A stretch of DNA of 64,000 nucleotides from Marinicrinis sediminis (GCF_042685085.1 NZ_JBHUMM010000007.1:177846-241845), one strand, 5' to 3'; shown: positions 42,139-63,946, counted from the stretch's first letter. Numbers and translations are program-made. Notes: generated by a model from the sequence alone, not told the origin.

Positions 42139-42394
42139 AAGTAATTGCCCAGCTTGTCTGATGACATCTATTTCAAAAATCCTTCTTCCACTAAATTGCC
42201 CAATAGCTTAGCAAGATTCACTTCATGTTACGGCCAGGTTGGTTGCTCGCCCCGTCTCTGACAGGTTCTTTCGTTGATACGCTTTACGCACAGACTTTGC
42301 CATACGCAAGTATCCAAGCTATACGGGGACTTGATTCCTCCGGCGATCGAACTTTCACCTGCTAGAAGATGCGTGCCTCTAGGCACGCATCCTA

Positions 42395-43447: not shown

Positions 43448-44149
43448 ATATATGTCCCTCTTTTCTGGTCATTTCATCATTCAATCCGTCTTGTAATCTG
43501 AGAGCTTGCATTCCTGACCTTCAAGCCACCTATCTATTGGTTCCTGTATGCCGATAATACTCTCCGATCAGCTACATACAAGTCCTGTTGTAAACGCTAA
43601 CACTAGTTTACATGATACGCCACATTCAATCTTTATATCAACCTTACTATGTGGTACGTGCTTAAATATATTGTTTGAAAGCATTTTATTATGGCGATAC
43701 ATCAGATCCTGTGAGGATGCAATCTCAGTACATTCAGATCGTTTGACAATCCTGAAGTTTCAGCCTCCACAATGTATTTAACTGGTGAGAATGTCTATTT
43801 GCGTCAGCGCTAGCAGCATTCGCATTGCACCGTAATTTTGATTATATTCATGTTCACTGATAATTGCTTTTATGTTGACCAGAAGTCATTACTGTCTCTC
43901 CTGCATGGGTGAGGACCTTTGGCTACACCTTGACTAAAAAAAACGAGGGGCGTTTGGGGTATTCTGGGGTGAAATTTTATCTCAATATGTGCTTCCGTGT
44001 TTCAGGATGTACCACATGCGGGAACATGTGGTAGTTATTTTGGTCCTGTATTAGTTGGATAAAACCCTTGATGTATAAGGATTTTATCCAACGCATATTG
44101 TTCTATTTGTTTGAGTTTTATTGGTTGTTGATGATGTTCGTCAACAGAA

Positions 44150-45040
44150 TCAAACAGTTGTTTTGAACCAAAGTAACAAATCAAATAATGAATACACCAT
44201 TGCTTGTACAGTAAATGAGGTTGGCTGATATGCTGGATTAAGGTATGGATTATGAGCTCCGTTATCACTTGACACTTTATATACGCATTCAGAAAACACT
44301 TTAATTACTCCAGAATAATATTCAGTTTGGGTAGGTTGATGATTATTTCTCCGGTGTTTGTTTCCACCTAAATGTTTGTGAGCATCCCAAAATTTCACGT
44401 CATTATTTGGCTTGAAACAACTGTCAGGAACTATACTTTTATCTAATTTATTTATTGTCTGGAGAATTGATTCTTGAACTCTACGGATTGTTACTAAATT
44501 ACTTTTTATTTGGGATAAATCATCACTATGCATATTTTTTATTAAGTTTACTAATTCATTCTCTATCGATATATCGACATGACCTCTCTCAAAAATCTGA
44601 AATACATTAAAATACTTATTTTTTATTTTAATATTCTCAAGTTCAAGACCCTTTTGAGTAATATAATTAAATAATGCTTCGATATCTCCCGGTATTTTTT
44701 TATATAGCTTCTCCTGAGGAAACCACGTTTTCACAGTCGAGAATCCTTCTGCATCGGCTGTTAAAATTGCTCGTGGAAGTTCTTTATATTTTTCATCAAG
44801 TAATGACAAAGCTATCGTTAGAAAATCTTCACCTTCTATCGGCTGATTTGGCTCTTTCAAACACTTTATATCAAGAACAATAAGCGTTAGCTTTGATGCA
44901 ATGGATGGTAATATTACTTCCATATCTCTAAAATTGGTTTTGTGTACTATATCAATATTATGGGGGCGGGCGGATCTCTTTAGTTCTTCTGCAAATCCTA
45001 TTTTATCATCTACTAATAACACATAATTTTTAGAGGACAT
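44150..45040 (-). CDS. Response-regulator receiver (REC) domain protein with an uncharacterised ~170-aa C-terminal domain
   Basis: 296 aa. REC signature residues: VLLVDD, phospho-acceptor-like LIVLDI, AILTADA (Thr), KLYKK (Lys). No recognisable HTH. Its start abuts the stop of the upstream kinase-like gene (45040/45041). Confidence 0.55.
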   Translation of the reverse strand: MSSKNYVLLVDDKIGFAEELKRSARPHNIDIVHKTNFRDMEVILPSIASKLTLIVLDIKCLKEPNQPIEGEDFLTIALSLLDEKYKELPRAILTADAEGFSTVKTWFPQEKLYKKIPGDIEALFNYITQKGLELENIKIKNKYFNVFQIFERGHVDISIENELVNLIKNMHSDDLSQIKSNLVTIRRVQESILQTINKLDKSIVPDSCFKPNNDVKFWDAHKHLGGNKHRRNNHQPTQTEYYSGVIKVFSECVYKVSSDNGAHNPYLNPAYQPTSFTVQAMVYSLFDLLLWFKTTV

Positions 45041-47686
45041 CTACAAGTTCTCCTTTAGGGGTAAAATAAAGTGAAGTTCCATTCCACTGTCTCTTTGATT
45101 AATTTCAAGCCTGCCTGAATGTGCACCTATTACTTTGTTTATATATGCCCCACCCAAGCCCTGTCCGTTGCTTTCTCTACCTTTTTTCAAAGGTGATATA
45201 TAATCGTTTTTTGACAAATCAAATGGTCTTCCATTATTTGTGTAGATAATATTTAAAAAATCCCCGTTCTCAGTGACTTTAATTCTGATTGTATTCTTAT
45301 TTTTTTTATTATTTTTCATATCAAATGCATGCATCTCTGCATTTCTAAATAGCTGGTTAAATAGCTCACGAAAAGACACTTCATGCATGTTCAAATATAT
45401 ATTTTTCAAACAATCGACTGATATTTGATACTTGTCTTTTATCTCTCTTCTATGAATATCCACTAGTTCATTCAAAAAATCGCATAAATTCACTATTTTA
45501 AAATCACTCTTTTTTAAATCTAATTTAATAATTTTATTGGTACGATCAATATATTCCTCGAGAGTCTTTGTATATACCTCTAATCTATCAAATATACCTC
45601 TTATACTATCTCGAACAAGGCTACTCTCACTAGCAATTAATAATTCTATATCAATATCTTTAGTATTCTGTATAGGGTTTTCTACAAATTCATCTAACAT
45701 ACCTTTAGAATATAAAAATTTTCTTAAAATACTTATATTACTATGAATATAAAAAATATATGGTAATGCATTATGAGAAAGAGTACTAATTATTTCTTTT
45801 TGAGCGTCTTGTGCTGTTCTCTCTAGCTCGTTTTCTTTTTCAATACTGAAATCTCGTAGACTCTCTATCTCTATTAGGGATAACTTTTGCTCCTTTATGT
45901 ATTCCTCTTGGGACTTTAGGTCTGGAACGTTAATCACAATGTTTAAAAAATCATTTTTTTTAATTCTAGGGATGGTACCTGCTCTTAGTTTTGCTATTTG
46001 ATTTAAAACTCTCGGACTATAAAGTTGATAGTATAAATACTCAATATTAATCAACCTTACTCTGGGTACTAGTGCCAATAGGTTTTGACCTATAATTATC
46101 TCTTTTGTAGGAGAATGTTCAGTATCATAAATAGTCGGCTTTAATTTTTCTCCAAGTAATGATATAATTATTGCTTGTTTGGATAAGACTTCCTTATTTA
46201 TCAACATCCTTCTTCTTTCAATTTCATTTGTATTAATATATTTTTCTTTTATCGATTCGTTTAAGTCTCTAATTCTTACATAAGGTAATCCATGCTCATC
46301 TTCTTCTGTTTGTCTTATAAAAACATCACTTACTATCTCAAAAACATCCCTTAATTTCTTCCCTATTCCTTTTTTTAAAAGAACCTCATTTTCAATAAAA
46401 ATACTGTCATATCTATTTACATTGAGACTAAAATTGTTTTCCTGTATTTCAATTAACGAAACAACTCTTGAAGTTCCCTCTACTTCATCGTATTTCTTTA
46501 ATATTTCTGCAACTGTATCCAAACTTACATTTGACATATGTCTCTTACCATCAAAATCGGAATACCATAGGCCATTTATAAATAACACTTTGCCCGTTTT
46601 ATAAGATTCTTTATTTTTTTTCAACACTAATAATGAGAATGATTTTTTTGAAAAAGAACTTACTTTCATCGGTATTGATACTACAGCTTCTATTAAATCA
46701 TTCTCGATAATACGCCGTCTTATTTCCCTCTCATTTCCTTCACTTGCAAGAAGCCTATCATCAACAACAACAATTGCCCTACCATTTTGTTTCAAGCTCG
46801 ATATAATATGCTGTATGAATGCATAATCAGACGATTTCCGTGGTGCTAAACCATATTGAAATCTGCCATATCTGTCATGAACATACTCACTGTAGTAGTT
46901 ATCACTGCGCACTGAAAATGGAATACGGGTAATTATTTTATCGAATTGAGTTATTTGATTATCATGGATATTCCCAGGATGTAATAGTGTATCACCAAAA
47001 AAAATGTTTACATCATATTCTCCATGCATAATAAAATTCATTATGCAGATACTATGATTTTTACTGTCCTTTTCCTGTCCAAATATTGATATTCTTTTTG
47101 ATTCCACAGAGTATTCCCTTGCATTTGTAATAATTTCGGTTAAAAAACCCCCAGTACCACAAAACGGGTCATAAACTCTCTCATTTTGTTTTACATCTAG
47201 TAAATTCACAAGTAATTTTTTTATTTCATCTGGGTAAGGCCTAACTCCTAAGGAATAGAAACGTAGTCTTTGAATTAAATATTCAAAAGCAACCCCCATA
47301 TCATGATCAGAAATTTCATCTGATGAAAGTGATAGACTATCAAGGTAAGCGATTATCGCATAAATACTAGTCATGAAATTACAGTTTTCAAACTTAATTC
47401 CATGAAATAAATTATTATACTTACCTAGATATTCATCCAATTCAGAAAAAGTTTTATCTAATTCTGAAGCTACAATACGAGACTCTCTTAGGTGGGTAGC
47501 ATTATTTCTAATATGTTTCCATAATCTTTGAATATGTGGTGTATTGTCAGCAACACGTTTTAAGAAAACTAAACTCAAGACATACAAATCAAGATCATAA
47601 TTTCTTACAGAGATATCACTTCTAACGATATCAAGAATACGAGAGAGCCTATGTTTGAAGATCTCTATTTTATCATAATCATACAT
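45041..47686 (-). CDS. Fusion protein: HsdM-like N6-adenine methyltransferase-fold domain (degenerate catalytic motif) plus C-terminal histidine-kinase/GHKL ATPase domain
   Basis: 881 aa. Motif I VYDPFCGTGGFL. HsdM-like blocks (ICIMNFIMHGEY, FIQHIISSLKQNGRAIVVVDDRLL...EIRRRIIENDLIEAVVSIP). The position equivalent to NPPF reads FDKIITRIPFSV. The C-terminus has HATPase_c N/G1/G2 boxes (RNAEMHA, NNGRPF, GQGLGGAYI) and a possible H-box (ISTLSHNALPY). Confidence 0.65.
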   Translation of the reverse strand: MYDYDKIEIFKHRLSRILDIVRSDISVRNYDLDLYVLSLVFLKRVADNTPHIQRLWKHIRNNATHLRESRIVASELDKTFSELDEYLGKYNNLFHGIKFENCNFMTSIYAIIAYLDSLSLSSDEISDHDMGVAFEYLIQRLRFYSLGVRPYPDEIKKLLVNLLDVKQNERVYDPFCGTGGFLTEIITNAREYSVESKRISIFGQEKDSKNHSICIMNFIMHGEYDVNIFFGDTLLHPGNIHDNQITQFDKIITRIPFSVRSDNYYSEYVHDRYGRFQYGLAPRKSSDYAFIQHIISSLKQNGRAIVVVDDRLLASEGNEREIRRRIIENDLIEAVVSIPMKVSSFSKKSFSLLVLKKNKESYKTGKVLFINGLWYSDFDGKRHMSNVSLDTVAEILKKYDEVEGTSRVVSLIEIQENNFSLNVNRYDSIFIENEVLLKKGIGKKLRDVFEIVSDVFIRQTEEDEHGLPYVRIRDLNESIKEKYINTNEIERRRMLINKEVLSKQAIIISLLGEKLKPTIYDTEHSPTKEIIIGQNLLALVPRVRLINIEYLYYQLYSPRVLNQIAKLRAGTIPRIKKNDFLNIVINVPDLKSQEEYIKEQKLSLIEIESLRDFSIEKENELERTAQDAQKEIISTLSHNALPYIFYIHSNISILRKFLYSKGMLDEFVENPIQNTKDIDIELLIASESSLVRDSIRGIFDRLEVYTKTLEEYIDRTNKIIKLDLKKSDFKIVNLCDFLNELVDIHRREIKDKYQISVDCLKNIYLNMHEVSFRELFNQLFRNAEMHAFDMKNNKKNKNTIRIKVTENGDFLNIIYTNNGRPFDLSKNDYISPLKKGRESNGQGLGGAYINKVIGAHSGRLEINQRDSGMELHFILPLKENL

Positions 47687-47762
47687 TACTTAACCTCCAA
47701 TCTTTTATATATTTAGTAATAGAGGCTAGTTTGTAACATTTCGAAACAAACTAGCCTATAAT

Positions 47763-50700
47763 TTAGTTATGGTTAGATATTAATCCAGTCACATTATTTA
47801 AATTCTCGATTGATAAAAAAGGTACTTGCCCAAATATTAACCCACTTTCCCCTTGAAGCCTTGCAGCCAAATGTCCCTTTCCGAGTAGCTTCTCCGCACC
47901 TTTTTCCCCAAGGGAAATCTCAGAGGTTCCTACGCTCTCAACCCGCAGGATTAGTCGATTACCTAAGTTATCCCTCAATTGGACCGGTAAAACATTTGCA
48001 TCTGGCCGTTGAGCTGCAAAGATCAAATGAATTCCTGCCGCACGTGCCTTTACCCCGAGCCGCTGTACGATGGAAGAAACAGCACTCTTGTATTCATCGA
48101 CAAGCATCCATTCAGCGAATTCATCGTGTATTAAAAATATTAGGGGAAGCTTCTCAGCATCAGCCACCTTAGAATTATAATCCTTTAAGTTGTTTACTTT
48201 GAACTCTTTAAACTTAAGGTACCTATCGTTCATTTCACCGACAAGATCCTCTAGTATCTGGGTTGCTTTATTCTGGTCATCGATAATACCTTCAACAAGA
48301 TGTGGTATATCCTCAAGATGCATATAATCGACACCATATTTAGGGTCAATTAAGTAAATATGCGCCAGATTCTTGCTATTCGTTACGCAGATATCAAGTA
48401 TTAGATTTTGTAGTAAGACGGATTTTCCACTTCCGGTAGCACCCGCAATAAGTGTATGTGGAGCATGCTGAGCCCCGCCTTCGAACTCGCCACCTAAATT
48501 TAGATAGAGCAGTTCCCCATCGATTTCTTTGACACCGATAACAAAGCTCATGTTTAACCCAGATGCATTGTTTTGGACCTTCCTTACCTTCCATACATCT
48601 GCTAATGATATGCTCTGCCTATGCGGGCGTGCTAAGGAAACAATTATTTCTCCAGGCCGAGCCATGATGTTTATGACATCAAGAGCATGTGTCGTAAGAA
48701 GGATGGATCTCCTCTTATCGATATCATCAACTTTTAACTGGTCCGATCCCTTAAGCCTTATGACAACAGCATTAGGCGTCAATCGATGGCCAATTACTTT
48801 CGCCTGCAAGTTATAGCTAATCAAAGCCATTCTGAGTTTATTTACTATTTCACTAACCCACGATTGATCTTCACTGGTTTCTTCAGTACTTTGAGCATTC
48901 TGTAATATCCACGTTGCTAACTGAGCATTCGCCCAAGGAATTTCACCGCTCATTTTGACGATGGCTTCCATTCCCTCTGGGTCTACCGATTCTGTTGCTT
49001 TCCCCTTGTTCAAGGGATCAGCTCCCTCATTCTCTCCTTGAGTTTCATCTCTCACAAAGTTCAACTCAATTTGATCGTCATCGGAATTATTAGGGGTATT
49101 ACTTTGTCCCGTAGCAAGTCCATTATTGCTCGCAGCAACAAAATTAATTCTTGGAGCGGGTAATGTAGCATCGCTTAATTCCCATGGCTTACTATCATCA
49201 AGCTTCTCTCTGATTTCGATGATGGATTTTCCCTGATGATAGGCTAAGACTAATTCTCTCACAAGATCCCTAGTAAAAACTTCCTGATGAGAATTCTTAG
49301 CATTTGTAATAGGATTTCTTTCACTGTCTAAAGATGTATCGGGAAACGTTGATATAAATACATGGGAATATCCCTTAATTTCAATTGGAATTTCCCCTGC
49401 CCGAATCCCCTCTCGCAACTCTTCAACAGTGAACGGAGAATTCGGGGCTAATTCAATACCATCATTTAACATATCACTAAATCTAGATAGCCATAGGTCA
49501 CGGTCAAGTCTACCAGGATCGCCAAAAAGTGCATTATGCATTCTCGAGACGGTATCGCGCAGCTGCTTTGAAGAATTCTTTCTCGCCTCGGACACACCTT
49601 TGGCATCAACATACTTAGCTTCAGAAACAAATACTTGTAGACGCGGCTTGTTTTCAACCATTTTGGGTGCAAGCGCTAATATATCTGCGATCTGCTCTTC
49701 CTTTTGTCCAAGCCAACTTGCGTAATCATCAAGGAAAAACCACCCTACAGCCTGTTCTGTTTCCATCTCGGATTGAAGGATCATCTTACTTAGTACAACA
49801 CCTATCAATTCACCAGCAAACACACCGCGTTTCGCAGCACGAAGAACGATGTCGCCTGATATTGCATTGGCATCCTCAATATACCGCTCCGTTAGCTGCA
49901 CTAATTCCGATTCAGATAATCCCAGACCTAAAGCATTCAACCTTCTTTTGACGAGGACATGTAACAAATTTAATTGAGATTTAGACGAAACAACAACGTT
50001 TGAGCCATGGGACTTATTGTGTTGGTACTTTATCACCTTTACCCCAAGGTTCCTAAGTTGTCTACGTTCTAACAATTCATCATAGTTGACTACCCACTCG
50101 CCGAGCTTGTGTGCCTCATCAAAAATGGCCTTCACTTTGTCATTCTGGAACGAAATTTGTCTTGCTGGTAAATAAAAAGCACCTGGGTTAACGTCTTTCC
50201 CCTTAACAACTGAATAAACGGACGTTAAGTAAGCCCAACCCACAGAAGGTTGACTTGGGCATGTCAAGTACACAGTAGATTTAAGTTCGTCCTTCGCCGT
50301 CGATCTTCTTTTAGCCCACCGCGGAGGATAATGGTTAAGCAATTCTGGCATCTGCCTCACTTGAACCTCATCCCATTCAAGATTGGCTTGCCTCGAGATG
50401 ACATCTTGTAAAAATACAATATCAGCTAGTTTTCCCTCTTTGGGGTCAGTTACAGTAGCCTCATGCGCCATCACTCCTACTCGAAGGCGTGCCATAAAAT
50501 CACGGGTGACCTCACTCGCAACAAAGGAGTCGGCGTCGCTATCTGCACTCTCTATCATCTTCATATATAATTCATTCAACTTATTCGTATCACGATGCCT
50601 TAGAATCACCTGACAGCGAATTTCATCTTCAATTTCATGCATTGCTGCTAGCGAGTTTACAATTGTCTCCGGAAGTCTAGTGGAATCACAGTTGTACAAA

Positions 50701-53105
50701 ACAAGGCTTAAGTTCGTTTTTTCATGAGGTTGAAGATCCAAATAACGTTCTACCAGACTGAGAAGTTTACTACTTGCTTCTTTCGGGTCTTCATTCGTCT
50801 GCACTTCTTCTTCAGTACGTACCGGACTTTCCATTAAGGTGTAATCATTCTTAGCATCTGTAATTGAAAGAAGCACCGGTTCAAGCCCCTTATACCCTAT
50901 AGCAACTTCTGGATAGTATGGGCTTACTATTTCTTCTTTGAGATCCGTAAAGAACAAACGCTGATCGCCAAAATCAATTTGGTCCGATGTTAATAGATAG
51001 TTTATTAAACCAATGACTTGTCTCGCCTTAACTACCTTTGCCGCCATTCGCATGGGGTGCCAAGGAGTCACAATAGTCATGGGTTTATTCTTTTCTCCAT
51101 CTACCCTGACATTCCCGATATCCATAACAGGCTGGGCAATCTGGACTCTATTCATATCGCCCAAGGCATGCTCTTGGAGAACTCGTAAAAACTTATCGTA
51201 CAGCTCGCTTTGTTCAATCATTGAATCTGAACTGATTCCATCTATTAGCCAATCATTGATAGATTGTTTATATTTAGTTGAAAAATTAGCCCATGCTTCT
51301 TTTAGAGTTTCATAGTCGTTCTGAGTTAGTCTTGCATCCTCAAGCAACTTCTTCAGATTATTTAAGACTGTTTTCTGTAAATCAGTGGTTTTTGCATAGA
51401 CACCGACTAGAGACCCTCTATCTTGTCCGAATACTGCTTGGATTGTACCGACATCGCTCAATGATAATCCCTGTAGCTTACCTTTCTTACTAACAGGATT
51501 TTGTGAAACACTGGAGTAAGAGAAAGGGTTATCAGCAAGTCTCCTTAAATCATCATGAAGTTCTAGTCCAATCTCATTAGGATTACCTTGCCATACCAGT
51601 TTCACTTCATTTTTTTGCTTTGACCCCTGTAAATCAAGGTAACTAAGCTCGATATAGAATGCGATTTGAATGGCCGCTTTGGCCGTTGATGTATTCTTTT
51701 TGAAGCCTTTCTTCTGTCTAGATTCTAATACTAACTGATCGTATTTAAACAAATGGTAAGTTTCCCAGTTTACTTGCCAATTGGTTAACTTCTCAAGCCC
51801 CCTGTAAGCATTACAGAAAGCTAGCCCCACATCTTCATTTATATCCAACCAAGCTTTTTTACTAGTGGTCTTCTGAGTGCGAATCCTAAGAGTCTTCTTT
51901 CCAATGAAACTATCACATTGGGCAAATAGACGCTCTGTTGCCTCTAATAAACCAACCAAAAAGTCTGTGCATTCAATTGCCTTACCATAAACAAAACGAT
52001 CCCACTCTGCTTTAAGAGCCTTCTCTGTCTCTAGATTGTGACGGTGCTTGTCGTAAAATTCTTTATCTTCTTCCGTGGCTTCCTTTGCTTTCTTCTTTTT
52101 AAAGAGTTCATTTAAATTATCAAGATAGATAATTTCCTCATCCATTAGAGTATCTGGAAACTCGTCATCAAATAACTGCCTAGTTTTTTCTGCTAGGTTT
52201 ATTTTCATTGGCTTCAATTCAAAAAATAGAAGGTTGACTTTATCTGTTTCCCATTCTAGTTCTGAAAGATTATCCGAAGCCGTGGACCAACTCACATTGG
52301 ATTCAATGAACAATTCCATGATTGGCTGAACAGAAGGATCAATTTGACTTTTCACTTTATCGTAAGAATCCCGAATTTCATTGTTTTCAATGATTTGACG
52401 ATTCGGATGCTGCTTATATAGATAACAAGCACGTTTATTATATGCATCTGTAAAAAACTTCTTCCATTTGCTTGCATGGCCCAAAGCATTCTCTGGGATT
52501 CCATCAAAAAAATAAGAATCACGTGGAATGCGAAGTGCTGGTAGCGCCCAGCCAAGTGCTCTAACAACCGGAATACCATTCTCTGCAATTGTTTCACGCA
52601 CTTTAACAGTAAATTCACTGAACTCTTCAAGGCTGCATTCATTTGCCTCTTGCAAACCTTTTAACGCTTGCTGCCAATGTCTTTTTTGATCATCACTTAG
52701 AGGAAGATCACTACTAGCCACTTGAACCCATATATCAGGTTGACTTTTCAGATCCGCTGCACCAACCCTTGCGATATCTCTTAACGATTGTCCTTGATCA
52801 TCATTCGTGTTCGCCAGTAAGATAGCGGGCTTATCACAAGAAGCATTCCTCCAATATGTTGTCTTTTCATCAGTAACCATATCAGAAGATAGCCCGCCTC
52901 CCTCAACTAATTTCCGAGGAACCTTAATGACCATTGTGGAAACTAACGTCGTATCTTGGCTTATCGTTTTACATATATAAGTGACCTGATCCCCAGTAAG
53001 ACGATCCAATAAAAAACGGGCAATCCCCTCCTCAGACTGGCTATTCTGTAATTGCCGACGAAGATATTCAGTTGCTACCCTTCCTATTAACTCTAGTTGA
53101 TTCAT
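47763..53105 (-). CDS. Giant (~1780 aa) protein with C-terminal FtsK/HerA-like P-loop ATPase; DndH/DptH-like by size and position
   Basis: The track ORF starts at 53153. The start at 53105 (MNQLELIGR...) gives an ATGA overlap with the upstream gene. The C-terminal FtsK-like Walker A is LIAGATGSGKSVLLQNLILDIC, with Walker B LIFLIHDEFAE. The ~1300-aa N-terminal region has no recognisable motifs. Confidence 0.65.
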   Translation of the reverse strand: MNQLELIGRVATEYLRRQLQNSQSEEGIARFLLDRLTGDQVTYICKTISQDTTLVSTMVIKVPRKLVEGGGLSSDMVTDEKTTYWRNASCDKPAILLANTNDDQGQSLRDIARVGAADLKSQPDIWVQVASSDLPLSDDQKRHWQQALKGLQEANECSLEEFSEFTVKVRETIAENGIPVVRALGWALPALRIPRDSYFFDGIPENALGHASKWKKFFTDAYNKRACYLYKQHPNRQIIENNEIRDSYDKVKSQIDPSVQPIMELFIESNVSWSTASDNLSELEWETDKVNLLFFELKPMKINLAEKTRQLFDDEFPDTLMDEEIIYLDNLNELFKKKKAKEATEEDKEFYDKHRHNLETEKALKAEWDRFVYGKAIECTDFLVGLLEATERLFAQCDSFIGKKTLRIRTQKTTSKKAWLDINEDVGLAFCNAYRGLEKLTNWQVNWETYHLFKYDQLVLESRQKKGFKKNTSTAKAAIQIAFYIELSYLDLQGSKQKNEVKLVWQGNPNEIGLELHDDLRRLADNPFSYSSVSQNPVSKKGKLQGLSLSDVGTIQAVFGQDRGSLVGVYAKTTDLQKTVLNNLKKLLEDARLTQNDYETLKEAWANFSTKYKQSINDWLIDGISSDSMIEQSELYDKFLRVLQEHALGDMNRVQIAQPVMDIGNVRVDGEKNKPMTIVTPWHPMRMAAKVVKARQVIGLINYLLTSDQIDFGDQRLFFTDLKEEIVSPYYPEVAIGYKGLEPVLLSITDAKNDYTLMESPVRTEEEVQTNEDPKEASSKLLSLVERYLDLQPHEKTNLSLVLYNCDSTRLPETIVNSLAAMHEIEDEIRCQVILRHRDTNKLNELYMKMIESADSDADSFVASEVTRDFMARLRVGVMAHEATVTDPKEGKLADIVFLQDVISRQANLEWDEVQVRQMPELLNHYPPRWAKRRSTAKDELKSTVYLTCPSQPSVGWAYLTSVYSVVKGKDVNPGAFYLPARQISFQNDKVKAIFDEAHKLGEWVVNYDELLERRQLRNLGVKVIKYQHNKSHGSNVVVSSKSQLNLLHVLVKRRLNALGLGLSESELVQLTERYIEDANAISGDIVLRAAKRGVFAGELIGVVLSKMILQSEMETEQAVGWFFLDDYASWLGQKEEQIADILALAPKMVENKPRLQVFVSEAKYVDAKGVSEARKNSSKQLRDTVSRMHNALFGDPGRLDRDLWLSRFSDMLNDGIELAPNSPFTVEELREGIRAGEIPIEIKGYSHVFISTFPDTSLDSERNPITNAKNSHQEVFTRDLVRELVLAYHQGKSIIEIREKLDDSKPWELSDATLPAPRINFVAASNNGLATGQSNTPNNSDDDQIELNFVRDETQGENEGADPLNKGKATESVDPEGMEAIVKMSGEIPWANAQLATWILQNAQSTEETSEDQSWVSEIVNKLRMALISYNLQAKVIGHRLTPNAVVIRLKGSDQLKVDDIDKRRSILLTTHALDVINIMARPGEIIVSLARPHRQSISLADVWKVRKVQNNASGLNMSFVIGVKEIDGELLYLNLGGEFEGGAQHAPHTLIAGATGSGKSVLLQNLILDICVTNSKNLAHIYLIDPKYGVDYMHLEDIPHLVEGIIDDQNKATQILEDLVGEMNDRYLKFKEFKVNNLKDYNSKVADAEKLPLIFLIHDEFAEWMLVDEYKSAVSSIVQRLGVKARAAGIHLIFAAQRPDANVLPVQLRDNLGNRLILRVESVGTSEISLGEKGAEKLLGKGHLAARLQGESGLIFGQVPFLSIENLNNVTGLISNHN

Positions 53106-56477: not shown

Positions 56478-56571
56478 TATGTACTACCACCTTTTCAGGA
56501 AATGGTCCCTCTGATTCATTCGACATCTTCCAACTATTTTCCTGTTTATTATCAATTTCAACATTTTATTG

Positions 56572-57471
56572 TTAATCAACATTAAGGAAACTATCACTAT
56601 TATTCGACAAATTAAGAATTAAGTGTGTGTATTTACTCATTACTAATTCATTATAAGCTACAGTATAAATTCTTGGGTCCGGAATACTGCACTCTACAAT
56701 ATGGTAATGGATCCCGCGGCACGAAGTTCTTATTTTTATGTATACAGGAACTATTTCAATGTTCTTTGGGACACTACTTGCAATCCCTAATACAGGATAC
56801 AGCAGCTTATGCTTAGCCAATGACTTATGACTAGTATCGCTTTTTGCTTCTAGAACAAATAACGTCTCCTTATTATTCCGTTTTTCTATAAACATAGCAT
56901 CTATTTCGACTTGACCTCTGTTGTGAATAAACACATCACTTATCGAACTATGTGGCCTAAATTCAAAGGTGTATGTCGAGTTACAACTTGCTGGTGGGAA
57001 TATCGGTTTTATATGATCTATACCAAGAGCATAACTTATTAAACCGGACGAGAATCCTAAATTAACATAAGACTTCTCAGTTAAAGATGGCAAAATAGAA
57101 AAGATCTTTAATTGCTCAACATTAACTGCAGGGACATACTCCGTTCCTACGGAATTAAAAATCATATCATCTATTAAGAAGAAATCATCGAGTTTATCCT
57201 GGACCTTTACTAATGCAAATTGAGTTCCCGAACCACCTTTCGTTTGCCCTAATCTCATTACCATTGCAGAATTACTTTTGATAGATTGATGTAATCGTTC
57301 ATACGAATCAATAGATATTGCGGCGGCCGCACCCATCTTGGGATATCCGTTACTTTTTAAGTAATCTATGAATGAAATTGGTCCAAAGGTAGCAACTGGC
57401 TTGTCCTTTATTGTGCTAAGGGCTGCTTCAAACACCTCACTGATTCCTTCCTGCTTGTCATTTTTCCTCAT
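56572..57471 (-). CDS. Hypothetical protein with a possible PD-(D/E)xK nuclease motif
   Basis: 299 aa. VEIDAMFIEKRNNKETLFVLEAKSD gives D...ExK spacing compatible with a restriction-endonuclease-like fold. Weak evidence. Confidence 0.4.
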   Translation of the reverse strand: MRKNDKQEGISEVFEAALSTIKDKPVATFGPISFIDYLKSNGYPKMGAAAAISIDSYERLHQSIKSNSAMVMRLGQTKGGSGTQFALVKVQDKLDDFFLIDDMIFNSVGTEYVPAVNVEQLKIFSILPSLTEKSYVNLGFSSGLISYALGIDHIKPIFPPASCNSTYTFEFRPHSSISDVFIHNRGQVEIDAMFIEKRNNKETLFVLEAKSDTSHKSLAKHKLLYPVLGIASSVPKNIEIVPVYIKIRTSCRGIHYHIVECSIPDPRIYTVAYNELVMSKYTHLILNLSNNSDSFLNVD

Positions 57472-57550
57472 GATTCCCCCTACTTTCTTACAAATATCTT
57501 AACAAAAACGCAAAATCGCCGGAATATCTCCGGCGAAAATGAAAGTTATT

Positions 57551-58426
57551 TTATGAAAATGAACACACACAAGGAATATCTGCATCTGCTTTGAATAAAA
57601 ACTTTTCAAAACCCTCCGCTTCCATCACTTGGCGAAACTGTTTCATCGTATAGGACCCACCGTTCTTTTTCAGAATCGAAACATCCTTTTGAAGGCTAGT
57701 CCTGAATCTCTCTTCCATCTCTTCTTGTTCACGATAACGTTCTGGCCATATTGCATATAGTAGAGCATAATGCTGGTAACCTCCACGCACACACCTTCCC
57801 GCACAGTTTGCGTGGGAAAATCCTTTAATCCCATTCCTTAAAGCAATCTGGGCATTTTCATTTCCTTCATCCGCTAGCTGTTCAGCAATATTATACATTC
57901 GAGGCAATTCAATACCCCATTCATCACGTATGATTCCCTTGGCGTCCAGATCCTCCCTGAACAAATCGATCAGTGGAAACCGAGTCTCAATTGTTTCTAA
58001 TGGAAAATGAGCATAAAAGTCCTTTAAGTTGTCAGCCCGATGCTTCTCATGAGGACCAATCCCAAAATACAAAATAGGCTCTAGGTTTCTCTCATTTCTT
58101 AATTCTTCTTCCAAAAAGATAATGGTTTGTCTCACTTTCAGCTCTTCCGAGCACTTGGCCAAACGTGCATTTCCCAGAAATCGCTCATCGTAAAACACTT
58201 CTTCAGGAGTTCTTCCATCAAGTCTTTCTGTAATTTCCAAACCAATATGATTTGAAACCTCCTCCATAAACCGGTAATTATCTTCATCTTCCCATAAAGT
58301 GTTTGTAAAAAACAAAATGCAGTTATCTTTCCCATACGTTTGCACCATATGGTAAGCAACATAAGCACTTCCAGCTCCACCGCTAAACATTGCTACATGT
58401 ACAACCTTTTTATCTTGGGTGCTCAT
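57551..58426 (-). CDS. PAPS-reductase-family PP-loop ATP pyrophosphatase (DndC/SspD/BrxP-like)
   Basis: 291 aa. PP-loop HVAMFSGGAGSAYVAY near the N-terminus. Confidence 0.7.
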   Translation of the reverse strand: MSTQDKKVVHVAMFSGGAGSAYVAYHMVQTYGKDNCILFFTNTLWEDEDNYRFMEEVSNHIGLEITERLDGRTPEEVFYDERFLGNARLAKCSEELKVRQTIIFLEEELRNERNLEPILYFGIGPHEKHRADNLKDFYAHFPLETIETRFPLIDLFREDLDAKGIIRDEWGIELPRMYNIAEQLADEGNENAQIALRNGIKGFSHANCAGRCVRGGYQHYALLYAIWPERYREQEEMEERFRTSLQKDVSILKKNGGSYTMKQFRQVMEAEGFEKFLFKADADIPCVCSFS

Positions 58427-58430
58427 CTAA

Positions 58431-61400
58431 TCACTCCGCTTTTATTACGTAATTTTCAAATAACTGATAGATAAGGTACTCGAGTTCTTGCCGAGGTACA
58501 TTCTTACCTGCCGCATTGATCATTCTTTCTAAATTTGAATAGACCGTCGCCGACTTAACAGACAGATCGACCTTATTAATCAATTTCCTGCTATTGTTCA
58601 GTTGAACTGAAACCATATTCAAGTTGTTTTGTTCAATTTCCTGTTCAGTAAGCCTTAGCTCCTCTAGATCGTGATTTAGTTGCGAAAAGAATAAATCATA
58701 AGTGGTATCAGACCAATCCTCCACTCTGACCCCTACGTATTCTTTAGCAAATTGCTCTATCCATAAATCTCCTTTCTCACTAGATAGCGAATTTTTAATT
58801 CTTTCCGACAGCTTATTAACCGAATAAGACCCGTTGGCCCGCTGTTCTTCAACCCAATTGTTTAAGTTTTTGTAATTGCTGAGTTCCATAACCTGTAACA
58901 ATTTCTCTGCTAGTTCGTTCTTTAGCAATACAGTGAAATTCTCTGCGTATTGCTTAATACCTATCAACTTATCTATATTATTTTGGTAGAGTCTTATTAG
59001 CTGTGCGACCGATTGTTGAGGATCTACCTCTGACCTTTTTATGAGATCCCTAAACTCGCCAAATTCCTTATCTACGTTAATAGAAGTTTGCGCAATCCTA
59101 GGAAGCGACCGCAGCCACTTCAATAAAGTGCCGCAAATAAATATTAGTCTAGATTGGTTGTTCAAACGCGTTTCAAGTGAATCAACAAAGCACTTCTCAA
59201 TACTATTAAAAAATTCAACATAGCTATCACTAATGTGCTCATAAGCGTACTGATAGTAATCCGCTCCAGTCTCCACTATGATTTCGAAAAGCGTAGATCC
59301 ATCTATGCCTGGAACAAACATACCATTGCGGTACAGCATAAACTCGTTCCAACGATCCCTAAGCAATGCAACAAATAGTATAGGGATCAACGGCTTCCTA
59401 ATTCCAAACGGCGGAGCCGAGCACAGCTCTACTAAATCTTTGAAATTACCCTTCGGGTTACTCTCTAAAACCTCGATTAATCTTGCTCTAAGAGCAGCAA
59501 ATGACTCGTTTAATATGTTTGAGTAGTCTAAATTATTGACATTCACATCAAGCCTGCCATTGTTTTTGAAGATAGTAGCAAACAATGCATAATCAGGACC
59601 ATTTCCTTCAATGCCAAACTGCTGTGTGCTTGGCTCCTCAATCATTTTATCAATAAGCTTAATCGCCGCATTTCTTTGCACTCTCGAAACCGTATTCCTA
59701 TTGAAGGAGTCATTCAAGATCACAGGTGTGCACTTAAACAGTTCATAGCATTTATCAGATAATTTTTCTGATACCTCAAGTTCGGAGTGCATCGTCATTT
59801 TATTGCCATCAATATACCAGGTCTTCTGATCTTCATATGAGATTATTTCGGATAGATACTGAGAGATTCTGTATCTAGTCTCATTGAATAAGACCTCTAG
59901 TTCTTCCTTAATTCCCTTATCTTCCGCAAGTAGAGCCTTGTTTCTTCTTAGTGAGTCCAAACCTAAATAATTATAAACATCTGGTATAATTTCCAGTAGA
60001 GGTTTGGAGTGTAAGAAAAATAGCTTTCTATCATATTCCTTACTCAAACTTCGTAAAATGAGATCAAGTGAATCGTATGACTCTAAATTTTCTGCTAAAA
60101 CATAATAGACTGTTAGATCAGACTGTTTATTCTCCTGAATCATTTTCCGATCCATTATTTCTTTTCCATACACAATTCTCACTTCAGAGAATCTTGTCAT
60201 TCCCTTGTCATCATTGTACCGTTCAGGAAAATAAAATTTCTTAACGAGATTATTGTGTAGAACTTCTATTTCCTTAGCTTGATCTGCTTTTATTACATGC
60301 TTTTCATGTTCTAGGCGTTCATGCATATCGACTGAACTGCCTGCAAATAACTCCCAGTAATCATTCACTCTATTAAACCTAATTACTTTATGTTTGCTGA
60401 GTACAGGTAAAATATCTGAGAGTTCATCTTCTGTAATTTGTGTTGCAAACCGTAAGAAATCTGAATTAAGCTTCTGTTCGTTTTGTACCGAGCACAAGTT
60501 CCAAAGAGTTATGAACTTCACTAGGTTCGTTGCCGACTGGTTATTTAGAAGTTCCTCAGGAAAACGGGCCATTGCTTTTTTATATAAAAGGATATGTTCG
60601 GATACATCATCATTCCCAAAATCATTCGAGTAGGAAAAGAAAAAATCAAACAGCTGGTAGCCTAAATAATATTCGTTACATTTGCTTATATGATTTAACA
60701 ACCCACCCGTTTCTTGACTTTCTAGAAAAGTAAATAACGTTCTCTCATTTTGTCCAAACACTCGGGTTAGATGTGGCAGAAGGAAAATCGAAACCGGATG
60801 AAGCGGGTACATACCTCGAACTACCAACTCATCTCGTTCCGTCTGATTGATACTCGGAAAGAGCGGGTACTTTCTCAGCATTTTACGTGTTGTAGAGAAA
60901 GCTACCTCACTAATAATTGGCTTCTGGTCAATATTCTCTGTAAGAATTAACTCCGAGATTCTGAGAAAGGTCGCTTGATCACTTTTCACCAAGTATTGAT
61001 TAAACCTCTTCTCAATACGTTGAAATTCCCTAGCTATCTCTTCATTCGAAGCATTAAAATAGGAACGCAAACTTCTATGGGTAATTAACAATAAGTGTAT
61101 TGAACTCATTCTGTTTGCAAGTTCCGCAAGATCTTGCATATCTTGCATAGCCTCATTAAATTCATTCGCATTCAGGCCCTGCAAAAACCTAGCAAATTCA
61201 TCATACACGATAAATATCCCCAAGTTGTTATCTTGTAGGATTGCTGCCAGATATTCCATCTGTGATAAAAAACTATAGTCATAATCAATATCAAACGATG
61301 CACCAGCGGTCATAAGGGGGTAGATTTCCGAAAAATACTTTATCTCGGTTTCATTCTGCTTTTTAATTTCTTCAACCCACCGCTTCAGCTCTTTTCCATC

Positions 61401-61907
61401 TTTATCTAATTGGACACAAAACTTGTCATACGTATCTTGGAAATCTTTCTCCCATAATTTTATGGAACTAATTATTTTTGCTGCCAATCCGGGTAATACA
61501 ACATCAATGCCATTTTCTTTAAGTATCTTTACAACACTAGCTATAATTGAGTGTCTAAACCTGCCTGCGTTACCACTTAACAAAATTGGCAGGTAAGGTA
61601 TCGGTAGTTCACTTGCATTTTTTATCATTCCTGGAATGTAATCATCGACTTGTTCAAACTTTTCAGCTAACGTATGAACTTCAGAAAGAGTACTCATTTT
61701 TGATACAATACTCCCAATTATATTGGCCAAAAACGATTTCCCAGTACCATATGGACCTATAATAATATGAGATCGGTTAGACCCTACAGCAAATCCATCC
61801 ATTATTCCTTTCATAGCTTCAGCGTGAGAAGGCGTAGGAATATAGCTTTTAAACAACTCTGCATTTCCAATATCTAATTTGATGTTAACACTTGATTTGA
61901 ATGCCAT
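58431..61907 (-). CDS. Large P-loop ATPase (SspC/BrxC-like candidate)
   Basis: 1158 aa. Walker A IIIGPYGTGKSFLANII at the N-terminus. Walker-B-like GIFIVYDEFARF. Long helical C-terminal region. Confidence 0.65.
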   Translation of the reverse strand: MAFKSSVNIKLDIGNAELFKSYIPTPSHAEAMKGIMDGFAVGSNRSHIIIGPYGTGKSFLANIIGSIVSKMSTLSEVHTLAEKFEQVDDYIPGMIKNASELPIPYLPILLSGNAGRFRHSIIASVVKILKENGIDVVLPGLAAKIISSIKLWEKDFQDTYDKFCVQLDKDGKELKRWVEEIKKQNETEIKYFSEIYPLMTAGASFDIDYDYSFLSQMEYLAAILQDNNLGIFIVYDEFARFLQGLNANEFNEAMQDMQDLAELANRMSSIHLLLITHRSLRSYFNASNEEIAREFQRIEKRFNQYLVKSDQATFLRISELILTENIDQKPIISEVAFSTTRKMLRKYPLFPSINQTERDELVVRGMYPLHPVSIFLLPHLTRVFGQNERTLFTFLESQETGGLLNHISKCNEYYLGYQLFDFFFSYSNDFGNDDVSEHILLYKKAMARFPEELLNNQSATNLVKFITLWNLCSVQNEQKLNSDFLRFATQITEDELSDILPVLSKHKVIRFNRVNDYWELFAGSSVDMHERLEHEKHVIKADQAKEIEVLHNNLVKKFYFPERYNDDKGMTRFSEVRIVYGKEIMDRKMIQENKQSDLTVYYVLAENLESYDSLDLILRSLSKEYDRKLFFLHSKPLLEIIPDVYNYLGLDSLRRNKALLAEDKGIKEELEVLFNETRYRISQYLSEIISYEDQKTWYIDGNKMTMHSELEVSEKLSDKCYELFKCTPVILNDSFNRNTVSRVQRNAAIKLIDKMIEEPSTQQFGIEGNGPDYALFATIFKNNGRLDVNVNNLDYSNILNESFAALRARLIEVLESNPKGNFKDLVELCSAPPFGIRKPLIPILFVALLRDRWNEFMLYRNGMFVPGIDGSTLFEIIVETGADYYQYAYEHISDSYVEFFNSIEKCFVDSLETRLNNQSRLIFICGTLLKWLRSLPRIAQTSINVDKEFGEFRDLIKRSEVDPQQSVAQLIRLYQNNIDKLIGIKQYAENFTVLLKNELAEKLLQVMELSNYKNLNNWVEEQRANGSYSVNKLSERIKNSLSSEKGDLWIEQFAKEYVGVRVEDWSDTTYDLFFSQLNHDLEELRLTEQEIEQNNLNMVSVQLNNSRKLINKVDLSVKSATVYSNLERMINAAGKNVPRQELEYLIYQLFENYVIKAE

Positions 61908-61909
61908 CT

Positions 61910-62797
61910 TTAGTAGGTCATCCTTTCAAAAAACTCGCCTTTTATATAATCAATAGATGAAACCATCGGCAATCTAATATAGTCTAAATTATTTGTTCTA
62001 ATATACTCAATCGGGTACTTGTCATGGGTCGTTAGAATATTTAAGGCTTCGACAACCTTATTTCGAGTTAAATTAAATATTCTTCCCCATAGATTTTCTG
62101 CATTCACAATCTCATCGACACCAATAAGTCGATCCTCTGATATCTGGTCATAATCGAGTAGAACGTAATAAAGAGCCGGGATACCTATCGTAGAGATTTT
62201 AGAAGCCACTTTTCTGATTGTGTCATCCCGTTCTCCCGAATGTTCACTTTTCATTAATGATAATCTTGAAAAAGGACAGAATAAAACGTCTTCCGGATCA
62301 TTCACATCAGGTACCTTCGTATAAAATTGAATCAAACAATCAATGTCTCTTTTGAGAGAATTCTTCGATACTGCTTTCGCTTCATTTTGGCTTACCCAAG
62401 TGATAAATGAATTGAATAAATCGCGTTTACCAACTATCGTTTCTCTATATTTATTAAAGTACCAATCGAAAACAGTCGAAAGATCATTCCCATTTCTTAC
62501 CAAATGGTAGTGAAGTATGGACAGTGATTCATTCCTTTGAAGGAGTCGATCACTCTCGAACAAAATATCTCCTATTTCAGATAACGCATGTACACGCTGA
62601 CCATCTTCTGTTCTTTCTTCAAGTACGTTGAAAGCAAGTAACCAATATTTTAAGGACTCAAGCATGTTTTTGCCCAAGCCAACTGTTTCAAAAGCATATT
62701 CATCAAAAAAGAATCTTTTATCTTGCTTTACTGCCCTTAACCCCTTACTAAACCATTTATCTCTTATATAAAAGCTTTGATGTCTAGCATAGGCCAT
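61910..62797 (-). CDS. DUF4007-like protein (SspB-like candidate, DNA-phosphorothioation-associated family)
   Basis: 295 aa. The N-terminus MAYARHQSFYIRDKWFSKGL matches the ARHE(S/T)F..R.GWL.KG opening recalled for DUF4007 proteins. It is tightly coupled (2-nt gap) to the large ATPase gene. Confidence 0.55.
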   Translation of the reverse strand: MAYARHQSFYIRDKWFSKGLRAVKQDKRFFFDEYAFETVGLGKNMLESLKYWLLAFNVLEERTEDGQRVHALSEIGDILFESDRLLQRNESLSILHYHLVRNGNDLSTVFDWYFNKYRETIVGKRDLFNSFITWVSQNEAKAVSKNSLKRDIDCLIQFYTKVPDVNDPEDVLFCPFSRLSLMKSEHSGERDDTIRKVASKISTIGIPALYYVLLDYDQISEDRLIGVDEIVNAENLWGRIFNLTRNKVVEALNILTTHDKYPIEYIRTNNLDYIRLPMVSSIDYIKGEFFERMTY

Positions 62798-62936
62798 ATA
62801 TAGATCTTCCTCTCTTGAAATGAAAAATTACTCCTGGAGAGATACCTCCAGCAGTAATTATACATCAGTGCGCCAAAAAAAAACACCCTATTATCGGAAC
62901 GCACGTTCCTATTATTTTAGTTCATTTCCTCTTAAG

Positions 62937-63598
62937 ATGCATTAGGATAAGATCGAATCTTTATTTAACTTGCCTGCGAAAGCTATCCTTGATGACTACC
63001 TTAGTGGTGGATTATGATGCCGTGCTCCTTCGCTCCGCTTCGTCCGCGCGGGACTGAACCCCTACCGTCCGTTTTTCGGACTCCCTATTGATTCCACTCC
63101 ATTCAACTTCTGTAGCAATAAAAAAGACACCCTTACGGGCGCCTTTTTTATTCCTATGGAGACGAGGGGAGTATCACAATCTTTATTTAATCTGCCTGCG
63201 GAAGTCTATCCTCGATGACTACTTTAGCGGTAGATTATGATGCCGTGCTCCTTCGCTCCGCTTCGTCCGCGCGGGACTGAACCCCAGGGTTCGCCTCCCT
63301 TCTTCACACCTTTACAAGACAAGAGCCCCGACCTATTAGGCCGGAGCTCTTGTCTTGTATGGAGGCGAGGGGAGTATCACAATCTTTATTTAATCTGCCT
63401 ACGGAAGTCTATCCTCGATGACTACCTTAGCGGTGGATTATGATGCCGTGCTCCTTCGCTCCGCTTCGTCCGCGCGGGACTGAACCCCTACCATCCGATT
63501 TTCGGACTCCCGATTGATTCCACTCCATTCAACTTCTGTAGCAATAAAAAAGACACCCTTACGGGCGCCTTTTTTATTCCTATGGAGGCGAGGGGAGT
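62937..63598. repeat. Three tandem ~200-230-bp modules, each a conserved ~110-bp element plus a terminator-containing spacer plus an 18-nt copy of the ssrA 3' end (att-core duplications)
   Basis: The core tatggag(a/g)cgaggggagt occurs at 63155-63172 (1 mismatch), 63358-63375 and 63581-63598. The last copy is the authentic 3' end of tmRNA. The conserved ~110-bp element (atcacaatctttatttaatctgcctgcggaagtctatcctcgatgactac...gggactgaacccc) occurs at 62941-63060 (diverged), 63173-63286 and 63376-63490. Spacers 1 and 3 are identical in layout, and spacer 2 differs. Confidence 0.8.
63546..63578 (-). terminator. ssrA rho-independent terminator (a duplicate copy lies at 63125-63153)
   Basis: The minus strand reads AAGGCGCCCGUAAGGGUGUCUUUUUUAUUGC immediately after the tmRNA 3' end. 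Confidence 0.7.
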
Positions 63599-63946
63599 CG
63601 AACCCCTGTCCGAAGATATCGCCACACCAGCTTCTACGGGTGTAGTGACTTGTGGGTGTTTCGCCTAAGCTGCTGCCAAGTCACCCACCACAGCCTAGAC
63701 TAGTCTGATTGTCTTCTTCCGTTAGCCCCAGACGGAGACTAAACGGCGTATCCCACTAAATGTGAGCCCCTGTCTCGGCACATGGGCGATGCAGAGGAGG
63801 AGCACGCTAGCAGGTTATTAAGCTGCTAAAGCGTAGTTAGTTTGTTGTTTGCCAGTTATTATTGGCTTTAGCGTTTTAGAGTGGACGCGTCCCCACTACC
63901 CGCTACTCATGCTCGAACTATCCCCGTCGAATCCATAAACGCCCCC
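63583..63946 (-). ncRNA. ssrA: tmRNA (SsrA), 364 nt
   Basis: On the minus strand the 5' end reads GGGGGCGUUUAUGGAUUCGACGGGGAUAG and the 3' end reads GGACAGGGGUUCGACUCCCCUCGCCUCCA (tRNA-like domain, discriminator A). The internal tag ORF GGC AAA CAA CAA ACU AAC UAC GCU UUA GCA GCU UAA UAA encodes (A)GKQQTNYALAA with a double stop. Confidence 0.85.

Follow-up and report, generated by a model that had tools for sequence, protein, structure and literature searches.

What kind of defence locus occupies the AT-rich block that abuts ssrA, the transfer-messenger RNA (tmRNA) gene, in Marinicrinis sediminis (Paenibacillaceae)? The original prediction took it for one operon and for a previously undescribed variant of a phosphorothioate (PT)-type defence system. 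We analysed a window of 64,000 nucleotides of this genome (GCF_042685085.1, NZ_JBHUMM010000007.1:177846-241845), in which nine long open reading frames (ORFs), all on the minus strand, run from 44150 to 62797; positions below are those of the window. The region is probably a mosaic defence island downstream of ssrA with three functionally separable modules: an SspBCD-SspFGH core, a DUF6997 gene lying within it, and a pair of genes for a methylase/target-recognition domain (TRD)/histidine kinase fusion and a response regulator, here called REC-X. Overall, it is a known system with two uncharacterised add-ons.

The Ssp core and the layout of the island

The profile hidden Markov model search proposed with that prediction, run here against PADLOC and Pfam, assigned genes of the locus to Ssp families and not to a conjugative or prophage module. 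The first three genes are sspB, sspC and sspD, as had been proposed. sspB (61910-62797, minus strand like all genes of the block) encodes a 295-amino acid (aa) DUF4007 protein that matched PADLOC SspB (2.6e-49) and Pfam DUF4007 (1.4e-67; 228 bits against a cutoff of 27), and sspC (58431-61907) encodes a 1158-aa P-loop ATPase (PADLOC SspC, 7e-112; Walker A GPYGTGKS at residue 51) with additional, weaker PADLOC matches to BrxC/PglY. sspD (57551-58426) encodes a 291-aa PAPS-reductase-like PP-loop protein with SGGAGS at residue 15. This is the weakest assignment, and the poor profile scores in both PADLOC (SspD, 1.7e-9) and Pfam (PAPS_reduct, 3e-4, slightly under the cutoff) speak against it; PHROG 424 (PAPS reductase) matched residues 3-290 at 3.8e-27, and orthologues (~1e-185) occupy the same position in Paenibacillus ssp clusters.

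The large trio downstream had been likened to dndFGH/dptFGH, and the arrangement of an ATPase and a giant protein is real, but the trio is of the Ssp type. sspF (54639-56477) encodes a 612-aa P-loop protein that matched PADLOC SspF (3.4e-233) over residues 9-608 (profile positions 1-599 of 600) and carries Walker A GTAGDGKT at residue 67. The start of sspG (53102-54646; 514 aa; PADLOC SspG, 5.4e-196) overlaps the sspF stop by 8 nt, and sspH (47763-53105) shares a 4-nt ATGA overlap with sspG; ribosome-binding sites precede these overlapping genes. SspH (1780 aa) matched its PADLOC model end to end (E = 0, 2260 bits), and the FtsK-like character that had been predicted for the giant was found in its C-terminus, an FtsK/HerA-type ATPase with GATGSGKS at residue 1555 and a Pfam FtsK_SpoIIIE match (7.5e-36) at residues 1562-1717 of the long ORF. 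The Walker A motif is intact in SspC, SspF and SspH. DndFGH/DptFGH was rejected as the identity of the trio: PADLOC returned SspF, SspG and SspH together with weak mad7, mad8 and HerA matches, and no protein of the locus matched a Dnd or Dpt model at E ≤ 0.01.

MADS, an eight-gene operon with an active methylase (10.1101/2023.03.30.534895), resembles the locus in partial matches of the fusion methylase to mad2, of the SspG C-terminus to MAD7 and of the SspH FtsK domain to mad8. The scores, however, fell far under the equivalog cutoffs (57.9 against 720 for MAD2 and 47 against 410 for MAD7), whereas the proteins match Ssp models end to end, and PADLOC found no counterparts of mad1 or mad3-6 in the locus; MADS was rejected on both scores and gene content.

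Wang et al. 2021 (PMC8092258) described SspABCD-SspFGH, tested it experimentally and counted 196 sspBCD-sspFGH loci. The PT motif of the characterised Ssp systems is 5'-CpsCA-3', protection requires each of sspF, sspG and sspH, and without PT the SspFGH proteins are toxic and give a positive terminal deoxynucleotidyl transferase dUTP nick end labelling (TUNEL) signal; T4 DNA replication is suppressed by SspFGH (PMC8092258). The closest described cluster is that of Vibrio anguillarum FF-93, which lacks sspA and sspE and draws its sulfur from IscS (PMC8092258). The M. sediminis core has the same six families at full length, in the same order of sspB-C-D followed by sspF-G-H, with an FtsK-like SspH C-terminus and with neither sspA nor sspE in the cluster. 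It differs in its host, a Firmicute (Paenibacillaceae) where the 2021 survey named proteobacterial genera, in the DUF6997 gene between the modification and restriction halves, and in its SspD, which only weakly matches the single PADLOC SspD model; its PT activity is predicted from the genes. No aminotransferase class-V match, as expected for the SspA cysteine desulfurase, was found in the nine genes or in 20 other window ORFs scanned, and the desulfurase must therefore be encoded at another site in the genome. Given their homology to characterised systems, SspB, SspC and SspD would install single-strand phosphorothioates on host DNA with sulfur supplied by a housekeeping cysteine desulfurase encoded elsewhere, and SspFGH would damage DNA without the PT mark and block phage DNA replication. 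Judged by its gene families, the core is an ordinary, already described SspBCD-SspFGH phosphorothioate restriction-modification (R-M) system. The Ssp-like identity of the supposed variant thus stood, but its novelty did not, since the core is known (PMC8092258) and the extra genes are not one Ssp extension.

The AT-rich block, its gene order and its gene sizes proved to be as had been described from the sequence. In order, the ORFs encode 295, 1158, 291, 299, 612, 524 (514 from the ATG), 1796 (1780 from the ATG at M17), 881 and 296 aa. In a 2-kb profile, GC content was ~0.49-0.52 at 1-14 kb, 0.30-0.32 at 44-48 kb and 0.36-0.42 at 48-63 kb, where the block runs up to ssrA (63583-63946); bases 1-35000 averaged 0.485. 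The left edge falls within a 700-bp intergenic stretch (43448-44149), beyond which lies a 2-hydroxyacid dehydrogenase gene (GC 0.43). A fine GC profile and per-gene values divide the island into two compositional blocks with a step near 47.7 kb: the seven ssp and DUF6997 genes have a GC content of 0.35-0.41 and the fusion and REC-X genes one of 0.30-0.32, and GC at third codon positions (GC3) is 0.23 in the pair against 0.31-0.365 in the ssp genes. A single minus-strand operon had been proposed; the shared strand holds, but the single operon is left in doubt by a terminator-like hairpin directly 3' of sspD (57516-57536, minus strand; 9-bp stem with 6 GC pairs, TCGCCGGAGATATTCCGGCGA then TTTTGCGTTT) and a promoter-like site found upstream of sspF in a consensus scan. 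Both sites are consensus matches only, and the total promoter and terminator counts in the region were no higher than the shuffled expectation; of the individual sites we draw only on the hairpin 3' of sspD, and cautiously. The gaps measure 2 nt between sspB and sspC, 79 nt between sspD and the DUF6997 gene, 94 nt between the latter and sspF, and 76 nt between sspH and the fusion gene.

The DUF6997 protein and its linkage to ssp genes

The gene between sspD and sspF (56572-57471) encodes a 299-aa protein of family DUF6997 (Pfam, 1.7e-14). Its N-terminal ~150 aa gave weak winged-helix matches only, and its C-terminal half is a PD-(D/E)xK nuclease domain with GQVEID (186-191), EAK (208-210) and HKLLYP (221-226), in which D191 and E208-x-K210 are the predicted catalytic residues. 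The pattern GQVEID...EAK...HKLxYP was invariant in an alignment of 19 diverse homologues, and the 113 homologues found span Bacillota to haloarchaea. The structure model was confident and matched the PD-(D/E)xK fold, with the alpha-beta-beta-beta-alpha-beta core and the D...(D/E)xK signature on strands 2 and 3; Foldseek against the PDB returned nothing at E ≤ 0.001, PADLOC and PHROGs gave no match for the protein, and a literature search found no paper mentioning the family. From these domain and motif observations, we predict a restriction-endonuclease-fold nuclease with an N-terminal region of ~150 aa.

The genomic context of DUF6997 was surveyed in 51 loci, with one genome per species, and ssp genes were sought within 10 kb by comparing six-frame ORFs with the Ssp proteins of the window, followed by iterated profiles. 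ssp genes lay within 10 kb in 23 of the 51 species-level loci (45%), in 12 genus-level lineages of four phyla (Bacillota, Planctomycetota, Gammaproteobacteria and Bdellovibrionota). The frequency of sspBCD in representative genomes is 3.0% (PMC12914056); with this taken as a generous background, the binomial tail was 8e-22 by species and 5e-10 by genus. The order sspBCD-DUF6997-sspFGH recurred in three Paenibacillus species; Gottfriedia had sspCD-sspFGH-DUF6997 and Oceanobacillus DUF6997-sspFGH-sspBC. DUF6997 stood beside sspBCD alone in Pseudoneobacillus, in a Gemmataceae metagenome-assembled genome (MAG), in a Halobacteriovoraceae MAG and in one Pseudoalteromonas, and in many Pseudoalteromonas it lay ~9 kb from sspB with PbeA-like helicase, MzaB-like, PLD-like and SspE-like proteins between them. 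The 299-aa gene had been singled out as fitting no described Ssp or Dnd layout; its recurrence beside ssp genes would fit an accessory role.

A similar intervening set (PbeA-like helicase and MzaB-like protein) was seen near DUF6997 and ssp in a planctomycete. In both the Pseudoalteromonas locus L024 (10804-19469) and the Schlesneria MAG locus L020 (1084-8457), which belong to distant phyla, a PbeA-like helicase, an MzaB-like protein and a ~300-aa protein separate sspBCD from DUF6997. The ~300-aa protein is PLD/DrmC-like in L024, where an SspE-like DUF262 protein is also present, and its 337-aa counterpart in L020 had no PADLOC match. The PbeA-like/MzaB-like gene set common to the two loci may be another undescribed restriction partner of SspBCD.

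The recurrent company of DUF6997 and ssp clusters points to an accessory or alternative restriction nuclease that would work alongside the PT mark without being obligatorily tied to ssp. The placement of its gene directly after the PT-modification genes resembles that of SspE and of the nucleases directly downstream of Dnd modification genes (wHTH/SBD-SRA-HNH, HARE-HTH-REase; PMC9646914, PMC10853773), and nucleases in that position have been proposed by Rakesh et al. to be real restriction components (PMC10853773). DUF6997 is therefore a candidate Ssp-linked accessory nuclease, and in the sources searched we did not find it described as an Ssp companion. Whether the protein itself reads the PT mark we consider evenly balanced.

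The methylase-kinase fusion and the REC-X protein

Downstream of sspH lies the gene for an 881-aa methylase/TRD/histidine kinase fusion (45041-47686). The MTase-like/His-kinase fusion that had been suspected here is real: Pfam matched N6_Mtase (9.3e-63, 213 bits), Methylase_S (1.6e-6) and HATPase_c (1.9e-5), NCBIfam gave partial EnvZ and PhoR matches, and motif alignments agreed. Motif I is kept (DPFCGTGG, residues 173-180) and motif IV is degenerate (TRIPFS, 253-258); one TRD follows at ~440-600, and the kinase core has an H-box with His638, an N-box at 781-786, a G1 motif NNG at 816-822 and a G2 motif GQGLGG at 841-846. All 18 family members keep the H-box (SHNxLP or HELRP), the N-box NAExH, the variant G1 NNG and the G2 GxG[LI]GG.

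The Asn/Asp-Pro-Pro-aromatic tetrad of adenine methylases holds the flipped adenine. Motif IV reads RIPF, QIPF, QIPL, HIPF, LVPF, ALPT or [DE]LPL in all 15 pair-associated fusions covering the region, and it is degenerate too in P0132, a related fusion whose neighbourhood lay outside the survey, whereas canonical HsdM proteins, including those encoded adjacent to the pair, keep NPPF. Motif I (DPxxGxG) is mostly retained across the fusions. The systematic loss of the tetrad argues for a non-methylating, ligand-binding domain, and the methylase domain of the fusion is apparently catalytically dead. TRDs of real R-M enzymes are hypervariable. In 11 of 12 pairwise comparisons of the fusions, conservation was higher in the TRD than in the methylase domain (for example 53% vs 39%, 96% vs 69%, 35% vs 22%), and this unusual conservation suggests that the input would be a conserved ligand and not a strain-specific DNA sequence. 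The ligand could be some general feature of DNA, or an anti-restriction protein that mimics DNA and acts on type I methyltransferases. That the fusion TRD copies the specificity of an adjacent HsdS was rejected: it had no significant similarity to neighbouring HsdS TRDs, the best match (E 0.004 over 82 aa) falling in a conserved region.

The gamma-class N6-adenine methylase fold followed by a Methylase_S-type TRD recalls the type I R-M methyltransferase (M2S1), from which the fusion differs in the greater conservation of its TRD and in its score against the HsdM model (TIGR00497, 104.6 bits against a cutoff of 242.75). Histidine kinases are homodimers, and a dimer of the fusion is thus predicted to arrange a pair of methylase domains and a pair of TRDs about a bundle of helices, recalling M2S1. 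An inactive methylase and a TRD also occur in DndH (PMC10853773), and the dead-looking methylase of the fusion would likewise serve recognition; unlike M2S1 and DndH, however, the fusion is joined to a DHp/CA histidine kinase and not to HsdS and HsdR or to a REase/FtsK partner. A literature search combining N6_Mtase and HATPase_c found no paper.

The start codon of the last gene (44150-45040) abuts the stop codon of the fusion gene. It encodes the 296-aa REC-X protein, and the REC protein proposed at this position is borne out by a REC fold with its acidic pocket (D11, D12), acceptor D57, T94 and K115. The remainder, ~130-296, is a helical output domain, X, with conserved residues R186, E190, H263 and W291. 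Among 49 diverse members, K115 and R186 are invariant, and D11, D12, D57, E190, H263 and W291 are at least 90% conserved. Searched against 1.84 billion representative proteins, the X profile found 441 clusters at E ≤ 1e-3 and 193 at E ≤ 1e-10, nearly all of ~300 aa with X in the C-terminal half. Domain X had no credible match in Pfam (E ≤ 10), in a PDB profile search or in NCBIfam; ten distant members of the family had no Pfam match, the full-length protein had none in PHROGs, and no relatives were found in the plasmid collection. The Arg/Glu/His pattern suggests catalysis, and X could also have a regulatory DNA-binding role.

The two genes travel together. In each of the 15 other loci whose upstream sequence could be scored (L001, L002, L054, L055, L058-L065, L067, L068 and L070), the gene directly upstream of REC-X encodes a methylase-TRD-kinase fusion, and the two genes abut or overlap wherever genes were called. 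None of the 15 has ssp genes (0/15). Type I R-M genes adjoin the pair in seven (L002, L054, L055, L061, L062, L063 and L064), with hsdM directly after REC-X in L002, L054, L055 and L061 (12-167 nt away in the three of these for which genes were called), which suggests a five-gene unit in those genomes. Zorya-like ZorC/D and GmrSD also lie near the pair in L002, as do McrBC-like genes and Mrr in L001. In addition, no fusion gene was found in the ~1 kb after sspH in the three Paenibacillus cassettes that share the sspBCD-DUF6997-sspFGH order. The ssp-free loci, the absence of the pair from these closest cassettes and its distinct GC3 together show it to be an independently mobile module that landed beside Ssp. 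The last two genes had been noted as foreign to described Ssp layouts; they form a separate module and not a part of Ssp. A reappraisal of PT systems by the Aravind group makes no mention of a histidine kinase or receiver (PMC10853773).

These observed domains, motifs, pairings and contexts suggest a translationally coupled sensor two-component module, and from them we infer its activities, ligand and defence role as follows. The pair would form a His-Asp phosphorelay in which the degenerate methylase and the conserved TRD serve as the input domain of the kinase. Binding of a conserved ligand, either a DNA feature or a DNA-mimicking phage protein, would lead to autophosphorylation on His638, and passage of the phosphate to Asp57 of REC-X would activate domain X, which would carry out the output. 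Detocs, which Rousset et al. reportedly presented in 2023, is said to consist of three genes for a kinase, a buffer receiver and a REC-PNP effector. It resembles the pair as a defence-island His-Asp phosphorelay whose regulator carries a non-transcriptional-looking output domain; the pair differs in having two genes and no buffer receiver, a methylase/TRD sensor, and an X domain unrelated to any Pfam family, and PADLOC found no Detocs match among the locus proteins.

Marks at ssrA, alternative readings and significance

ssrA (63583-63946, minus strand) was identified by ARAGORN and by Rfam (RF00023, 198.9 bits, full length) and encodes the tag peptide GKQQTNYALAA. The tandem duplications of its 3' end that had been reported at the island edge were recovered: the 3'-terminal 16 nt, TGGAGGCGAGGGGAGT, are repeated at 63360 (exact) and 63157 (1 mismatch), which gives three copies. 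16-mer matches and the repeat families D1/D2 define three tandem units on the minus strand, A (63376-63598), B (63173-63375) and C (62920-63172). Each unit, of ~200-250 nt, runs from the 16-nt ssrA end through a terminator hairpin to a conserved ~110-nt element (GGGGTTCAGTCCCGCGCGGACGAAGCGGAGCGAAGGAGCACGGCATCATAATCCACC...), and mean column identity in the alignment of the three is 81%. Units A and C have the same terminator and B has another. The units look like stacked marks of repeated insertion or excision at a tmRNA hotspot. No ssrA was found within the fetched flanks of the related Paenibacillus ssp cassettes, a result in keeping with horizontal transfer of the cassette.

tmRNA genes are well known as integration sites. 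This, together with the three ssrA cores at the boundary and weak NCBIfam matches of the FtsK domain to TraB, TraD and EccC, is what could be said for a prophage or integrative conjugative element remnant in which the FtsK-like and P-loop giants are transfer or packaging proteins. We find this barely credible, since the Tra-type matches are far under their cutoffs (TraB, 49 bits against 800) beside the end-to-end SspH match, no integrase, capsid, tail or relaxase genes were found, and PHROG matches among the four proteins tested were only to generic methylases, kinases and PAPS reductases. All three cores lie on the ssrA-proximal side of the island, no further copy occurs elsewhere in the window at ≤3 mismatches, at the far end or as a distal att site, and ORF and profile scans found neither an integrase gene nor an integrase-sized unexplained ORF within 43.5-63 kb. 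One new extended Ssp variant, in which the kinase and REC-X regulate or extend PT-based restriction, would fit nine co-directional, tightly packed genes with only 76 nt between sspH and the fusion, and the inactive methylase and TRD reported in SspH-/DndH-type proteins (PMC10853773) make a thematic link conceivable. It is nonetheless improbable in view of the composition step at 47.7 kb and of the contexts of the pair, which is missing from the closest cassettes and ssp-free in every other locus. For DUF6997, by contrast, a stand-alone restriction-like nuclease that accumulates in defence islands and hitch-hikes inside the ssp cluster is a real possibility, though the less favoured one. Several observations weigh on its side and against an Ssp partnership: 28 of the 51 loci had no ssp gene in the fetched flank; 13 of the 23 ssp-positive loci are Pseudoalteromonas and hence not independent; other neighbours are BREX (PglX/BrxHII), a type IIG enzyme with a DISARM-like helicase, Mokosh-like and PDC-M09 genes, GmrSD or Mrr-STAND, and unrelated or housekeeping genes; on Bacillus megaplasmids DUF6997 sits among hypothetical proteins; and in the window the hairpin and the two flanking gaps set it apart from sspD and sspF. 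The Ssp link could thus reflect a general preference for defence islands. Yet 45% co-localisation with a system present in ~3% of genomes speaks for more than that, and the linkage outlives rearrangement: across four phyla the gene occupies the sspD-sspF interval, follows sspH, precedes sspF or stands convergent with sspBCD alone. We read DUF6997 as a nuclease of defence islands that favours phosphorothioate systems strongly but not exclusively.

The reading of the pair has its own difficulties. G1 is NNG and not DxGxG, and the HATPase_c score of 25.5 bits is 0.9 below the Pfam cutoff, so that ATP binding is uncertain; unusual motif IV sequences are tolerated by some methylases; domain X has no recognisable fold or family; and in L056/L057, the sole exception seen, X is paired with a membrane histidine kinase without a methylase, which indicates that this output domain is not restricted to methylase-type sensors. 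The L056 example (84-3150) joins a more distant REC-X protein to a membrane histidine kinase of 664 aa. A 2026 machine-learning survey (PMC13092281) also draws an unvalidated predicted HATPase and REC system, which may or may not be the same as the pair. The retained motif I and the 213-bit N6_Mtase match would suit an active orphan or type-IIG-like methyltransferase regulated by its kinase part, and possible DNA binding by X and the ordinary membrane kinase of one member would suit a transcriptional two-component system outside defence. Either is unlikely: (N/D)PP(F/Y) is lost in every pair-associated member and kept in adjacent genuine HsdM, the pair is consistently found in defence islands (type I R-M, Zorya-like, GmrSD, McrBC-like, Mrr), and the invariant Arg and near-invariant Glu and His of X would be more catalytic-like than helix-turn-helix. 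The fullest form of our proposal, in which the pair is a new defence-island two-component class (a dead methylase, an M2S1-mimicking dimer joined through the kinase DHp bundle, and a guard or back-up for type I R-M in other genomes and for Ssp in this one) and DUF6997 is a new PT-linked nuclease, is put forward only tentatively and is, as a whole, doubtful.

Elsewhere in the window, 16279-20349 (minus strand) encodes a 1051-aa protein with PLD nuclease, SNF2/ResIII helicase and DUF3427 domains and an adjoining 292-aa HNH_2 endonuclease (GC 0.42-0.44); the two genes could constitute a second module of restriction type. Another patch of low GC (0.34) at ~37.6-41.9 kb, within 37409-42364, lies between the copies (37409-37607 and 41974-42172) of a 199-nt direct repeat that are 75% identical. 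Pfam gave no match for two of its three large ORFs, and it is followed by fragments of a cytidine/MafB19-like deaminase (41830-42138) and of group II intron D1-D4 (42223-42364; Rfam, 57.6 bits). The patch looks like another insertion. A purine riboswitch aptamer (305-404, minus strand; RF00167, 50.8 bits) lies downstream, in the sense of transcription, of the gene for a 1097-aa SLH/NHL-repeat surface protein (610-3903), and the gene it controls would lie past the left edge of the window.

The Ssp core is one more SspBCD-SspFGH locus, in a Paenibacillaceae host at an ssrA hotspot, and adds little alone. For about 84% of sspBCD clusters no restriction partner is known (PMC8092258), and, with DUF6997 found near ssp genes in 12 independent lineages, this makes DUF6997 a testable candidate for a missing partner or helper. 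The pair seems to represent a family not yet characterised; it comprises hundreds of sequence clusters, and its output domain has no Pfam, PADLOC or PDB assignment. Should DNA or anti-restriction proteins prove to trigger its phosphorelay, the pair would represent a new coupling of foreign-DNA recognition to a response.

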